Source: a virus
Lineage: Duplodnaviria; Heunggongvirae; Uroviricota; Caudoviricetes
DNA length: 40,851 nucleotides
Virus record (IMG/VR): IMGVR_UViG_2541047691_000017
Reading direction: 5' to 3' (one strand)
A program made the position numbers and the translations under genes. The notes beneath the pieces were generated by a model. The model had not been told where the DNA came from, did not search any database, and worked only from the letters and a program-made list of their open reading frames with translations. Of this stretch, positions 6,617 through 35,122 are shown piece by piece (position 1 is the stretch's first letter; the number at the start of each line of letters is the position of its first letter).

Positions 6617-6631
6617 TTACCTTTCAGGTAA
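6617..6631. promoter_or_regulatory. Operator-like palindrome TTACC-TTTCA-GGTAA
   Basis: Exact TTACC-N5-GGTAA; upstream of the LexA box and the 6708 gene. Confidence 0.6.
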
Positions 6632-6707: not shown

Positions 6708-6965
6708 ATGCAGCAGTATCACTATCCACTGGAAGACGGATTTACCGAAAGGATTCACACGCCGGGAGGCGTCAGGTCACTGGTGGAGGGATCGCACTTG
6801 ATGAAATTACTCCGGGATCTCGATAAGGATGGATTTAATGTCGATGGCCCACTTGCCGAACTGACTGCACTGATTAACTACGTCACCAGCTCACAGATGT
6901 CTATGCAGGATCTGCAAACACATCTCGACTATTGTGCCGAACAATTACGAAAACAAACCAGATAA
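6708..6965 (+). CDS. Small antirepressor-like protein, standalone paralog of the antirepressor C-terminal domain
   Basis: 85 aa from ATG 6708 (MQQYHYP...). Aligns by eye with the C-terminus of the 7283..7933 product (IHTPGGV..SHLMKLL..DG.NVDGPLAELT..Y...DLQTH vs IHSPSGV..SLLMNLL..DGHDVSGAAAELT..Y...DIQTH). The longer listed ORF start at 6585 would place the LexA box inside the coding region. Confidence 0.6.
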   Translation: MQQYHYPLEDGFTERIHTPGGVRSLVEGSHLMKLLRDLDKDGFNVDGPLAELTALINYVTSSQMSMQDLQTHLDYCAEQLRKQTR

Positions 6966-6996
6966 GATTTGAAATTACCAAGTGGAGTGCTTATGT

Positions 6997-7011
6997 TTAC
7001 CTTTGAGGTAA
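6997..7011. promoter_or_regulatory. Operator-like palindrome TTACC-TTTGA-GGTAA
   Basis: Exact TTACC-N5-GGTAA between the 6708 gene and the antirepressor gene. Confidence 0.55.
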
Positions 7012-7101
7012 ATTTACATCGCACTCCTCTTGTGCCATAGTAATCGGGCACTGGCAAAATCCAGTGCCGGGATTGGTCTCCCGGATTACTAAGTGGCGCA
7101 T

Positions 7102-7124
7102 ACCACGCCAGACGTGGTTTTTTT
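7102..7124 (+). terminator. Weak intrinsic terminator
   Basis: Stem ACCACG/CGTGGT around a 5-nt loop followed by T7; downstream of the 6708..6965 gene. Confidence 0.3.
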
Positions 7125-7282
7125 ATGCGTATAGCACAGTCATGCCAGAATTATGGTGGGCTGAATGGGGGTCCGAAAGGACGCCGGTACCACTTAGGCC
7201 GGTAAGACCAACTCCGTTCAGTTCACCACCATCTGATTGGTCTCAGCGGTGGTGATGTAATTCGCTAAGTGGAGACGCCATA

Positions 7283-7933: not shown

Positions 7934-7999
7934 CGGGCGGCGGCACAGGGATGTGCTTCTGACATAATCATTTGCGGTGTGATGTAGATTCACGTAAGA

Positions 8000-8014
8000 T
8001 TACCTTAAAGGTAA
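8000..8014. promoter_or_regulatory. Operator-like palindrome TTACC-TTAAA-GGTAA upstream of the 8041 cassette
   Basis: Exact TTACC-N5-GGTAA, 26 nt upstream of ATG 8041 and before its AGGAGG RBS. Confidence 0.55.
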
Positions 8015-8040
8015 ACCATGGGTTTACATGAGGAGGAGAT

Positions 8041-8250
8041 ATGGGATTTTGGTTCGCTCGTACAAAAACGAGGGATAATGCACCCAGCCCTCAGGCAAAA
8101 AATGCAGAAGTTCCGGCGTCAGCGCAGGTTAACAAGCGTGGTGGAGTATATATCTCATCACAGCAAATTTCTGAGCTTCCTGAGGTTAAGGAGATGCGTC
8201 GTCTCGCTGCTGCAATTGTTAAACAGGATCTTGCCACTGTAAGGAAATAG
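8041..8250 (+). CDS. Small hydrophilic protein of unknown function, first gene of accessory cassette
   Basis: 69 aa; strong RBS (AGGAGG) before ATG 8041; stop TAG overlaps the GTG start of the next gene (TAGTG). Confidence 0.55.
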   Translation: MGFWFARTKTRDNAPSPQAKNAEVPASAQVNKRGGVYISSQQISELPEVKEMRRLAAAIVKQDLATVRK

Positions 8251-9116
8251 TGTTGTTAGCTCTTCTAATTATCCCCATTCTGGTTAGTGGTTATATTATG
8301 ATAACCGCTAACCAGTATCATTATTTCCGTTTATACCGACATGAAGGCCAGCTTCTTTATATGAAAGTAGCTGCATTAGGTACATATTGCCTTGTTGCAT
8401 CAGTAATAATTGCAGCCGCTATAAAATATAAATGGCCTGATTTTCACCTAGTTCACGATATGGTGGAAACTTTTAATGTAACATCAAAACCAGAAACAGA
8501 TAGAATTTACATGTGGCTGCTTCTTCTCTCAGCCACATCCATTTGCTTCTCTTTGTGTTATGTGTCTGTTGTGTGGGTGAAAGATTTTCTTCTTGGTTGT
8601 TTTTATAAACGTGATATTTACGAGCAAAAAACAGAGGCAATGAAGGCCAGAGTACTGCGAAAAACTTACTCGCAAGGTTCTTTAGACTTACTATTGCTTG
8701 ATGCTATTGAATCGGATCCTAAACGACCAATGTTGATTACTTTATCATCAAACAAAGTGTATGTTGGAATAATAAATGGTTCTGGTGAACCAACGGAAAA
8801 TCAGGGTCCGCATCAGCACATATCTTTTGTTCCTTTAATGTCAGGATACAGGAACAAAGAAAACTTATCTGTCACATTCACTAATGCTTATCCAGGAGAA
8901 ATACAGGTCAAGCGGACTGCAGCAATAAGAGGAATTAGCAGAAAGAAAGTGCTAGGACTTGAGATCATGGTGTCTATTGACGAAATAAGTTATATATCAT
9001 GGTTTGATTTTGAAGTATATAAAGCAACAAATAACAAAGTAGAATCCAGGGGGCACGTTATTCGTGTTACCAAAAATGGAAGAAATATATATCAAAGAAA
9101 TAGCAAAAAAGAATAG
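8250..9116 (+). CDS. Membrane-anchored protein of unknown function (three predicted N-terminal TM helices, about 170-aa soluble C-terminal domain)
   Basis: 288 aa; GTG start with AAGGA RBS 5-6 nt upstream, translationally coupled to 8041..8250; markedly AT-rich relative to neighbours; followed by a strong terminator. Confidence 0.6.
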   Translation: MLLALLIIPILVSGYIMITANQYHYFRLYRHEGQLLYMKVAALGTYCLVASVIIAAAIKYKWPDFHLVHDMVETFNVTSKPETDRIYMWLLLLSATSICFSLCYVSVVWVKDFLLGCFYKRDIYEQKTEAMKARVLRKTYSQGSLDLLLLDAIESDPKRPMLITLSSNKVYVGIINGSGEPTENQGPHQHISFVPLMSGYRNKENLSVTFTNAYPGEIQVKRTAAIRGISRKKVLGLEIMVSIDEISYISWFDFEVYKATNNKVESRGHVIRVTKNGRNIYQRNSKKE

Positions 9117-9136
9117 CCCGCGCTGCGGGCTTTTTT
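9116..9136 (+). terminator. Strong rho-independent terminator after the accessory cassette
   Basis: Stem GCCCGC/GCGGGC with 3-nt loop, then T6, immediately after stop codon 9114-9116. Confidence 0.75.
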
Positions 9137-9208
9137 GTGGACGAAACAAAAGTCAGTGCTACACTCATTGACGCCACATTGAGGTGGCTTATAGATGGAA
9201 ATGTCACA

Positions 9209-9370
9209 ATGAAAAAAGCATTTGCTGCACTGTTCGTTTTGTTGTCTCTGGTAGCTTCAACTCAGGCCTTTGCCGGTCGTTGTCAGCACGACAGCGACAC
9301 TGCTGCTGACGGCTCACGCTGCGGTGGGCGTTCTGCGGATTCCCGCCCAGGCGGCGGTGGCATTCGTTAA
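9209..9370 (+). CDS. Small secreted Cys-containing protein (53 aa)
   Basis: ATG 9209 gives MKKAFAALFVLLSLVASTQAFA signal peptide then a Gly/Ser/Asp-rich 31-aa mature peptide with Cys residues; the longer six-frame ORF start at 9137 lacks support. Confidence 0.4.
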   Translation: MKKAFAALFVLLSLVASTQAFAGRCQHDSDTAADGSRCGGRSADSRPGGGGIR

Positions 9371-25941: not shown

Positions 25942-25978
25942 TTGACATTTAACGCACTAATTATTACCTTTCAGGTAA
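25942..25978 (+). promoter_or_regulatory. Putative promoter (-35 TTGACA) with downstream operator-like palindrome TTACC-TTTCA-GGTAA (25964..25978)
   Basis: TTGACA at 25942-25947; palindrome identical to the 6617 site; no clean -10 hexamer at standard spacing, so promoter strength is uncertain. Confidence 0.45.
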
Positions 25979-26300: not shown

Positions 26301-26377
26301 GTGGCATTAGCTCAGTTGGACAGAGCAACCGCCTTCTAAGCGGTTGGTCGCAGGTTCGAATCCTGCATGCCACGCCA
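26301..26377 (+). tRNA. tRNA-Arg (anticodon UCU), argU-like
   Basis: 77 nt folded by hand: 7-bp acceptor stem GTGGCAT/ATGCCAC, D-arm GCTC/GAGC, anticodon stem ACCGC/GCGGT with loop CTTCTAA (anticodon TCT), T-arm GCAGG-TTCGAAT-CCTGC, encoded CCA. Confidence 0.9.
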
Positions 26378-34465: not shown

Positions 34466-35050
34466 ATGAAAAGTATCCAGGACGTCCGCAGGCAAAATCT
34501 CAACGACTTGATCGACCGTGAATTCAATGGTGTTCAGACGCGGATGGCAGAAAAACTTGGAACTCAGGCAAATCTGGTAAACCGCTGGGCTCTTGGCAAG
34601 AAGGTTATCGGCGACCAGGTTGCGCGAAAAATTGAAGCTGCCGCCAATAAACCCCGTAACTGGCTTGATATCGATCGCTCGCTTTCTCAGGAAGGTTTTC
34701 AGCCTGTCGGCCCAAGCGACATTGGCCAGCTGGCGGCTCACAACCTGGAACGCTGGATGAGCGAAAGCCGCGACCTTTCAACACAGGGAAAACTTCACCG
34801 CGCATCCGGCGTCGCCCAGGTGACAATCAGCCGCCTGTTAAACAATGAGGTCAGCGTTTCCATTTCCACCCTGGAGAATGTTGCATCCGCATTCGGGCGT
34901 CACGGCTATGAATTACTGATTCACCCGCACGACCCTGCGACCATCAACTATGACCGCTCGCGCTACGCATTGTTACCCGAAACCGAGAAAGCAAAGATCG
35001 AAAGTTACATTGAATTTGTCATCAACCAGAACGAAAAAAACAAACAATAA
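34466..35050 (+). CDS. Prophage repressor candidate: tandem-HTH (two XRE-type HTH domains) protein without an autocleavage domain
   Basis: 194 aa; HTH-like segments TRMAEKLGTQANLVNRWALGKK and ASGVAQVTISRLLNNEVSVSISTL; no Ala-Gly / Ser-Lys peptidase S24 module seen; divergent from Cro-like gene. Confidence 0.6.
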   Translation: MKSIQDVRRQNLNDLIDREFNGVQTRMAEKLGTQANLVNRWALGKKVIGDQVARKIEAAANKPRNWLDIDRSLSQEGFQPVGPSDIGQLAAHNLERWMSESRDLSTQGKLHRASGVAQVTISRLLNNEVSVSISTLENVASAFGRHGYELLIHPHDPATINYDRSRYALLPETEKAKIESYIEFVINQNEKNKQ

Positions 35051-35107: not shown

Positions 35108-35122
35108 TTACCTAATGGGTAA
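35108..35122. promoter_or_regulatory. Operator-like palindrome TTACC-TAATG-GGTAA (OL-like)
   Basis: Exact TTACC-N5-GGTAA upstream of the early-operon promoter. Confidence 0.55.

Follow-up and report, generated by a model that had tools for sequence, protein, structure and literature searches.

Positions 8,041–9,116 of a 40,851-nucleotide stretch of DNA from a virus of the class Caudoviricetes (IMG/VR virus record IMGVR_UViG_2541047691_000017; the whole of that stretch is called the window below) hold two overlapping genes that form a compact cassette, the first encoding a small soluble protein and the second a predicted inner-membrane protein. The cassette is best explained as an accessory ('moron') module with two components, horizontally mobile and carried by temperate phages and by plasmids, and the cytoplasmic domain of its membrane protein has, in the predicted structure, the Sm/LSm/Hfq fold. 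We consider the chances about even that the pair acts as a membrane-acting, toxin-antitoxin (TA)-like anti-phage defence or exclusion module. The genes are as follows.

8041..8250, + strand: small partner gene, ATG start, 69 amino acids, soluble; identified from its open reading frame (ORF), its membership of phrog_5739 and the synonymous-only changes between alleles.
8250..9116, + strand: large gene, predicted inner-membrane protein of 288 amino acids (from GTG 8250) or 287 amino acids (from TTG 8253, the conserved start); member of phrog_3630.
8029..8037, + strand: Shine-Dalgarno sequence of the small gene, GAGGAGGAG, read from the sequence.

Both ORFs, which the original prediction had called at 8041 (69 amino acids) and 8250 (288 amino acids), are real genes. 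Compared with Escherichia coli alleles that are ~10% divergent, the large gene has a ratio of non-synonymous to synonymous divergence (dN/dS) of 0.078–0.088, indicative of purifying selection. The small gene differs between alleles by one to three changes, every one of them synonymous, and these fall at third codon positions when read in the 8041 frame but not when read in an overlapping ORF at 8018. It is preceded by a strong Shine-Dalgarno sequence, and both genes fall in PHROG families, the two of them annotated as function-unknown. An apparently N-terminally truncated large gene in some E. coli strains proved to be a difference of annotation, all copies being intact. Divergence between alleles of the cassette is mosaic, with 8000–8500 near-identical and 8519–9116 at a synonymous divergence (dS) of ~0.5. 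When alleles are compared by gene region, the small gene and the first ~250 nucleotides of the large gene have a dS of 0.02–0.07 and the Sm-domain half a dS of ~0.5, a pattern that suggests recombination inside the large gene.

The large protein belongs to a big family that standard resources do not name. With E <= 1e-3, an exhaustive profile search recovered at least 2,364 clusters (50% identity); 934 of these reach E <= 1e-10, and nearly all members are 240–340 amino acids long and matched end to end. Scans of Pfam, NCBIfam and PADLOC v2 (PADLOC-DB v2.0.0) gave no meaningful match for either cassette protein, for 79 family members or for 14 small partners; in PADLOC, there were 0 matches at E <= 1 for the two proteins and 0 relevant ones for the 79 members together with the P2, phiES15 and SEN5 homologues. 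Sequence searches of the PDB with profiles of the large and small proteins returned chance-level matches only, and the exclusion families SieA, SieB (PF14163), Imm and Sim produced neither a Pfam match nor an annotated PHROG match. All public sources label the large protein 'hypothetical' or 'uncharacterized', and a few P2-like entries for the small partner bear evidently spurious names.

An AlphaFold2 model of the large protein, built from the family alignment (pLDDT 88.5, pTM 0.79), gives its architecture. Three hydrophobic helices (residues 1–22, 35–60 and 86–116), on which hydropathy and the model agree, are followed by two cytoplasmic helices and then by a small beta-barrel at residues ~160–255. 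The distribution of charges predicts an N-out/C-in topology. The segments map to the window as follows.

8250..8369, + strand: transmembrane helix 1 (TM1) and juxtamembrane motif, LLIPILVSGY ... Y-x-L-H/Y-R-x-x-G-Q-x-L-Y, from the conservation profile, hydropathy and alignments.
8352..8597, + strand: TM2 (residues 35–60), a variable predicted periplasmic loop and TM3 (residues 86–116), from hydropathy windows and the AlphaFold2 helices.
8727..9014, + strand: predicted cytoplasmic Sm/LSm/Hfq-fold barrel (residues ~160–255), with motifs K-V-Y-V-G, E-P-x-E, P-L-M-S-G-Y-R-x-K and F-T-N-x-Y.

In the predicted structure, the soluble domain begins with a helix at its N terminus, after which five antiparallel strands make up a strongly bent beta-sheet, a small barrel, as expected of the Sm fold. 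Conservation across the family is concentrated in this domain and in the TM1/juxtamembrane segment, the best-conserved region besides it; conserved loop and strand residues of the barrel include K169, Y171, G173, P181, E183, P195, S198, G199, Y200, R201 and Y214, and TM2, TM3 and the linkers are variable. Sequence profiles of LSM or Hfq in Pfam and NCBIfam matched neither the large protein nor the 79 family members, and a fold search of BFVD matched small phage Sm-like proteins only. The original prediction had described three N-terminal membrane helices and a protein outside any family it could name, and both points hold; it had also left the soluble domain unassigned, a gap that structure prediction now fills.

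The domain shares its predicted fold with Hfq, archaeal SmAP and eukaryotic LSm proteins. It differs from them in having no LSM/Hfq Pfam match, in being fused to three transmembrane helices and in being paired with a small partner; searches of the literature and of structures turned up no membrane-anchored Sm protein built in this way, whether as a solved structure or as a description. The overall plan also resembles that of the MscS-type channels, MscS being a protein of ~286 amino acids with three N-terminal transmembrane helices and a cytoplasmic small beta-domain of the Sm-like superfamily. We do not take the large protein for an MscS-like channel, as the likeness is one of plan only, with no MS_channel profile or fold match.

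The second defining feature of the family is the partner gene. At every locus for which upstream DNA is available, a homologous small gene lies directly upstream of the large one, mostly overlapping it or a few bases away, and this overlap or adjacency is conserved across loci. Among 28 IMG/VR loci, 26 have the pair and the remaining 2 lack upstream DNA. Paired loci occur in the P2-like phages SEN4/5 and ST15-OXA48phi14.1, in Cronobacter phage phiES15, on IncC plasmids and metagenomic contigs, and in genomes of Symbiopectobacterium, Arsenophonus, Yersinia, Brachymonas, Turneriella, Acidobacteria and Bryobacterales. The small proteins have a common core: in the cassette protein it reads V-x-x-x-G-x-V-x-I followed by a helix E-V-K-E-M-R-R-L-A-x-x-I-V, and in alignments of homologues a beta-hairpin-like V-x-V-x-G-R-G-x-V-x-(I/V) followed by a helix. 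Because the small gene accompanies the large gene in this way and its product keeps a shared core, the two genes appear from these comparisons to be an obligate pair across several phyla.

A small first gene to which a larger second one is coupled, in an arrangement conserved across loci, is the layout of type II TA systems. It raises the possibility that the pair is a TA-like addiction module that stabilizes its prophage or plasmid through a membrane toxin and a small antitoxin and has no dedicated anti-phage role. The presence of the pair on IncC conjugative plasmids and as isolated chromosomal islets would fit such a module, as would the YafO-type pair that occupies the same slot in the related phage TL-2011b (see below). 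We nevertheless find this explanation distinctly unlikely, since the small protein shows neither an antitoxin fold nor a DNA-binding domain and the pair is concentrated at phage defence hotspots and has been predicted as a defence gene. The motif V-G-R-G-x-V-x-I-P-S-E-E-I had suggested a looped-hinge protein of the MazE/AbrB type, and hhalign aligned it with VDELGRVVIPIE of AbrB, but at a probability of 0.7%, against 0.1% for MazE; searches of Pfam and the PDB with 14–21 small partner proteins likewise found no recognizable family. Many TA systems double as defence systems, so that the addiction and defence readings overlap.

At the junction of the two genes, the stop codon of the small gene and a GTG of the large gene overlap as TAGTG, with AAGGA just 5' of them. 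Coupling through this overlap had been part of the original prediction and is borne out, together with the upstream AAGGA; the GTG start that went with it probably is not. Whereas GTG 8250 is not conserved among relatives, TTG 8253 is invariant in 8/8 aligned sequences, and MLALL... is how most homologues in the databases open. The large gene therefore probably starts at TTG 8253, which gives a protein of 287 amino acids beginning 2 nucleotides past the small-gene stop. The messenger RNA is predicted to fold tightly across this region.

8243..8327, + strand: predicted mRNA structure over the junction, with an outer stem pairing 8243–8252 with 8318–8327 and an inner 15-bp hairpin at 8280–8315.

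The segment 8236–8330 has a minimum free energy of -32.5 kcal/mol (z = -7.1; 0/200 shuffles equally stable), and the outer stem of the predicted fold buries both the ribosome-binding site and the start of the large gene. The start codon of the phiES15 homologue is likewise buried in its predicted fold (z = -4.3). In close relatives of the cassette, 93% of cells in the structure are paired; the single compensatory pair is not above shuffles, in a comparison among relatives that are very similar. We read the gene overlap and the RNA fold together as enforced translational coupling with a thermodynamic basis, as modelled. Translation of the small gene would come first and its ribosomes would open the stem that hides the large-gene start, so that the partner would always be made with, and ahead of, the membrane protein.

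The genomic positions of family members bear on function. In P2-like prophages of E. coli TUM1881 and Tig228, the pair is the sole cargo between DinI/gpA and the portal gene Q, that is, in the P2 A-Q defence hotspot defined by Rousset 2022 (PMC9122126), and in a Klebsiella P2-like phage it occupies the same hotspot, adjoining a stand-alone bSEFIR gene. Four lambdoid lineages have it just outside int, a position seen in prophages of Citrobacter, Pectobacterium and Cronobacter and on metagenomic contigs, and a Providencia copy lies in a tailspike-proximal slot resembling that of the window. One member sits in a defence island among genes for SRA-HNH McrA-like, NUDIX, HNH, Endonuclease_1, UvrD and KAP NTPase proteins. 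On Salmonella IncC plasmids the pair adjoins an AAA ATPase gene, some chromosomal copies are isolated two-gene islets among housekeeping genes, and further hosts include Pseudomonas phages and Acidobacteria and Leptospirae genomes. Qualitatively, then, family members occupy defence hotspots and islands: the P2 A-Q locus, integrase-proximal prophage ends and one island.

Several other observations were made at these loci. In three Arsenophonus symbionts (L012, L014 and L016), premature stops break off the large gene after 46–62 codons, and it is intact in related Arsenophonus; the interruptions look like decay in reduced symbiont genomes. A weak, 227-residue homologue in a Bryobacterales metagenome-assembled genome (L019, 5605–7241) shares 4 nucleotides with the beginning of a gene for a Kir-type potassium channel (IRK_C, Ion_trans_2), an overlap that may point to a connection with ion flux or may be coincidence. 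On two metagenomic contigs (L027 and L028), the pair is immediately preceded by a short gene of the resolvase (serine recombinase) kind; it has recently been proposed that small serine recombinases mark defence loci (PMC13552941).

Members of the family have been listed before, as unnamed candidates. Table S5B of Rousset 2022 (PMC9122126) includes it among uncharacterized hotspot systems as #43, a single protein at 93 loci, and #57, a large and a small protein at 75 loci ('2 TM in protein 1'); the large protein of #57 has the motifs LLIIPLLVSGY ... KKTYVG ... ISGYRDKD and its small partner VEVVGRGAI.... In the P2-borne pair of E. coli, the large protein is WP_000212611.1 and its small partner WP_000094764; Table S5 of DefensePredictor 2026 (PMC13092281) lists the former under 'Predicted novel defense gene', at a log-odds of ~5.1, which exceeds the stringent cut-off of 4. 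These copies are of the same family as the large protein of the window but are 27–35% identical to it and lie in P2-like phages rather than in a Uetakevirus slot, and neither paper named them or assigned them structurally. Literature searches on Sm-like or Hfq-like domains in phage defence and on the protein accessions turned up no characterization in the sources accessible to us, which were incomplete. To our knowledge, the family was thus already known as an unnamed candidate, and the Sm fold, the universal partner gene and the regulatory setting are new.

The positions in the P2 hotspot, beside integrase genes, in a defence island and next to bSEFIR, together with the listings in the Rousset and DefensePredictor tables, make defence or exclusion the best-supported reading of the module. 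In this respect, the original prediction of a defence or exclusion candidate stands; the operator described below, which predicts repression, speaks in this phage against the classical picture of an exclusion gene that the lysogen expresses. In kind, the cassette resembles RexAB, the transmembrane effectors of CBASS and Pycsar, and pairs of the Butters gp30/31 type. Like them it is small, mobile and placed at accessory positions of prophages, and its operon combines a multi-helix membrane protein with a soluble partner and fuses a cytoplasmic small beta-barrel or sensor-type domain to transmembrane helices; unlike them, it has no homology to any of these systems and no signal-producing enzyme in the operon. 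A related candidate was examined and set aside. We considered whether the family might be the '2TM' part of the validated AC1 system, 2TM+1TM+TIR (Rst_2TM_1TM_TIR), but hhalign against AC1 protein 2 gave a probability of 0.2%, and the TIR-like neighbour in the Klebsiella P2-like phage, which had prompted the idea, is a stand-alone bSEFIR; AC1 protein 1 (126 amino acids) was judged unrelated by inspection only, and most family loci are without a TIR gene.

Several points weigh against a defensive role. Neither cassette protein has homology to known defence, toxin, antitoxin or channel families in Pfam, NCBIfam, PADLOC, the PDB or hhalign comparisons, and several chromosomal copies are surrounded by housekeeping genes and have no neighbours of a defence kind. 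Cargo unrelated to defence is likewise present in the P2 hotspot, and the family is not among the systems tested in Tables S2A and S2B of PMC9122126 or Tables S6–S8 of PMC13092281; in the literature, to which our access was incomplete, we found no experiment on any family member. With a CI-type operator directly next to the -10 element of its slot promoter, the cassette may be kept silent by the lysogen, and such silence is unusual for a defence system borne by a prophage. Lastly, ring formation, ligand binding, pore activity and toxicity, on which a defensive mechanism would draw, are all properties that we infer.

If the module is protective, the fold suggests how it could work. The large protein would insert through its three membrane helices with the Sm-fold domain facing the cytoplasm. 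Sm domains normally assemble as hexameric or heptameric rings, and a ring under the membrane could gather the conserved TM1 helices into a potential pore or interaction surface. The small partner might keep this assembly inactive, in the manner of an antitoxin or a lid, or might itself serve as a sensor. The trigger could be infection itself, by removing or engaging this partner, or the binding of RNA, single-stranded DNA (ssDNA) or a nucleotide as a ligand to the conserved loop residues of the Sm domain; by analogy with the RNA pockets of Sm/Hfq proteins and with WYL sensors, the near-invariant E-P-x-E and S-G-Y-R-x-K motifs are a candidate ligand site. The triggered complex would then leak ions or block the entry of phage DNA, aborting the infection. 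A sharper form of this idea, which we hold to be doubtful though worth stating, is that a membrane-anchored Sm ring is a direct sensor of a nucleotide or of phage nucleic acid, be it early RNA or the ends of injected ssDNA, and that it gates a TM1 pore, with the small co-translated partner as a safety catch. This would be the first Sm/Hfq fold in bacterial immunity; in the searchable defence literature we found no report of an Sm fold as an effector or sensor module.

The element that carries the cassette is a Uetakevirus-like phage of the epsilon15/phiV10 type, not the P22-like phage of the original prediction. Known phages match the flanks of the cassette only, and they are phiv142-3 (genus Uetakevirus), TL-2011b, EC.W1-9, HEMP4 and phiV10. 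In comparisons with phiv142-3, TL-2011b and EC.W1-9, the homology of the backbone stops just past the antirepressor gene ant (~7957) and restarts exactly at the terminator stem at 9115, and flanks that are 96–98% identical enclose other cargo: a 59-amino-acid gene overlapping a YafO-family toxin gene in TL-2011b, a 108-amino-acid gene overlapping a DUF2335 membrane-protein gene in EC.W1-9 and two tiny ORFs in phiv142-3. The large gene has a GC content of 0.361 (0.291 at third codon positions) against 0.489 for the window and 0.50–0.54 for ant, the portal gene and the terminase gene. Because an AT-rich cassette thus lies between shared flanks with swapped cargo, its horizontal acquisition is supported; the AT-richness of the second gene and an origin by transfer had both been proposed from the sequence at the outset, and the GC comparison and the flanks agree with them.

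The cassette was found in 30 of 5,426 E. coli genomes, on the chromosome in all 30. At 5/5 inspected E. coli loci it occupies the same slot of the same type of prophage, with different tailspikes, and yfgI or yfgH adjoins the prophage at the 4 inspected loci whose flank reaches the prophage end. In some E. coli prophages, an extra 167-amino-acid gene is stacked behind the pair (locus L020, 8140–8643).

The slot is bounded by regulatory elements.

7972..8000, + strand: slot promoter, weak and sigma-70-like (TTGCGG, 17-nucleotide spacer, TAAGAT), proposed from the sequence and below the threshold of the consensus scan.
8000..8014, unstranded: operator palindrome TTACCTTAAAGGTAA, putative CI-type repressor site, repeated in the window and kept in relatives.
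9115..9137, unstranded: intrinsic terminator at the right border of the slot, AGCCCGC-GCT-GCGGGCT (stem 9115–9131) plus a T-run, from a scan of both strands.

The palindrome lies directly 3' of the -10-like hexamer and is retained in phiv142-3, TL-2011b and EC.W1-9 with their other cargo; phiv142-3 and TL-2011b have a matching promoter layout, TTGCAG-17-TACTAT, with the operator directly abutting. Since the operator and the terminator are kept in relatives with different cargo, sequence comparison assigns the operator-promoter and the terminator to the slot and not to the cassette. An upstream operator and a strong terminator had been attributed to the cassette as its own: both exist, and it is the ownership that falls.

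TTACC-N5-GGTAA palindromes with at most one mismatch occur 12 times in the window, against 0.59 expected. Two strict copies (34348 and 34396), plus a looser copy seen by eye, lie between a CI-like repressor gene (34466..35050) and a cro-like gene; those at 35108 and 35170 flank a TTGACA-16-TAATTA promoter; others are at 25964, 29110, 29128, 32003 and 32065. Near the cassette they precede a small paralogue of the Ant C terminus (6617), ant (6997) and the cassette itself (8000). From this 12-site network, including its copies between cI and cro, we infer that the palindrome is the operator of the prophage repressor and that the slot promoter is repressed in the lysogen. Copies of the palindrome stand directly after the -10 elements of apparently every early or accessory promoter and also near a terminase-proximal regulator gene; it seems that a single repressor silences the prophage at each promoter individually. 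The cassette is accordingly predicted to be silent in a stable lysogen and to come on with ant upon loss of repression or on infection of a naive cell. The terminator scan gave no hit in the interval from ant to the cassette, which makes transcription reading through from the ant promoter another possibility. Purely as speculation, this regulation could serve a guard-like logic in which the module acts when the antirepressor of a superinfecting phage, or the SOS response, removes the repressor.

Such control could also mean that the pair serves the lytic cycle, in lysis timing, membrane energetics or counter-defence, and is expressed only after derepression. The CI-type operator abutting the slot -10, as at ant and the early promoters, and the lack of a terminator after ant are what that explanation would expect. 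We think it quite improbable all the same, given that the content of the slot is dispensable and swapped in close relatives and that the pair elsewhere lies outside int, at the P2 hotspot, on plasmids and, free of phage genes, in chromosomes, all positions of the lysogenic-conversion type.

In its surroundings the cassette recalls P22 immI/sieA and P1 immI (c4-icd-ant): it adjoins an antirepressor gene between virion genes and the tailspike gene, and the ant leader has C4 and IsrK-type RNAs and a promoter under predicted repressor control. It differs in that the phage is Uetakevirus-like and the cassette proteins are unrelated to SieA, SieB, Mnt and Arc. A protein of the inner membrane in this setting might provide non-lethal superinfection exclusion, blocking the translocation of incoming DNA in the manner of SieA, T4 Imm or P1 Sim, with the Sm ring and the partner playing structural parts. 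The predicted location of the large protein and its strongly conserved TM1 would suit that role; early expression with ant, from a position beside an immI-type region, would shield the replicating phage; and a SieB gene neighbours some P2 loci and occurs elsewhere in the same prophage in some lambdoid prophages. Even so, we judge exclusion of this kind unlikely. The proteins have no similarity to the SieA, SieB, Imm or Sim families, an obligate coupled small partner and a cytoplasmic ligand-type domain are foreign to known exclusion proteins, and the alternative cargo of the slot is toxin-like.

The ant leader itself contains two Rfam matches at gathering level on the + strand, isrK at 7048–7124 (67.7 bits) and C4 antisense RNA at 7149–7233 (61.2 bits), placed between the operator-bearing promoter (~6969–6997) and ant (7283), with a terminator-like hairpin at 7102–7118. 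Here, then, a Uetakevirus-like prophage has an immI (c4-ant) layout of the P1/P7 type, and isrK is an Hfq-binding small RNA. With a predicted Sm/Hfq fold encoded 0.8–1 kb downstream of isrK and C4, the large protein could be imagined as a membrane-tethered, Hfq-like RNA chaperone that works with these immI RNAs on ant or on host genes. We regard this as highly improbable: the pair occurs in many elements with different neighbourhoods (the P2 hotspot, integrase sites, plasmids and Acidobacteria; Rfam was run on the window only), no Pfam family, including those of Hfq and LSm, is matched by either protein, and the co-location with the RNAs is best explained by the slot adjoining immI.

Other genes of the prophage were noted in passing. 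An 85-amino-acid gene at 6709–6965 on the + strand (phrog_450), with the operator copy at 6617 upstream, is homologous to the C-terminal third of Ant and may be a truncated antirepressor paralogue or a regulator. Directly past the slot terminator, a conserved 53-amino-acid backbone gene (9209–9370, + strand) is present in all relatives; its product has a signal-peptide-like N terminus and a Gly/Arg-rich tail, has no Pfam match and is labelled 'transmembrane anchored protein' in other records. A tRNA-Arg gene (anticodon TCT; 26301–26377, + strand) lies within the prophage between the portal-proximal and terminase-proximal blocks.

Returning to defence or exclusion, the reading that we favour, the cassette takes its place among prophage-borne membrane-effector pairs as one with an unusual fold. 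If the module is protective, a large and widespread family that PADLOC, Pfam and NCBIfam miss would be added to the defence repertoire. For a membrane-tethered Sm/Hfq-like barrel with an obligate partner we found no characterized counterpart, and its study could reveal a new way of coupling the sensing of nucleic acids or other ligands to membrane disruption; should the idea of a pore-gating Sm sensor be correct, the family, with its at least 2,364 clusters in several phyla, would constitute a widespread and mechanistically new class of sensor-effectors. The cassette is found in prophages of enterotoxigenic, Shiga toxin-producing and extraintestinal pathogenic E. coli and on IncC resistance plasmids, and so could affect host range in phage therapy. 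The repressor-controlled slot of Uetakevirus-like phages, which swaps toxin-like pairs, offers a convenient natural setting in which to follow the exchange and regulation of defence cargo.

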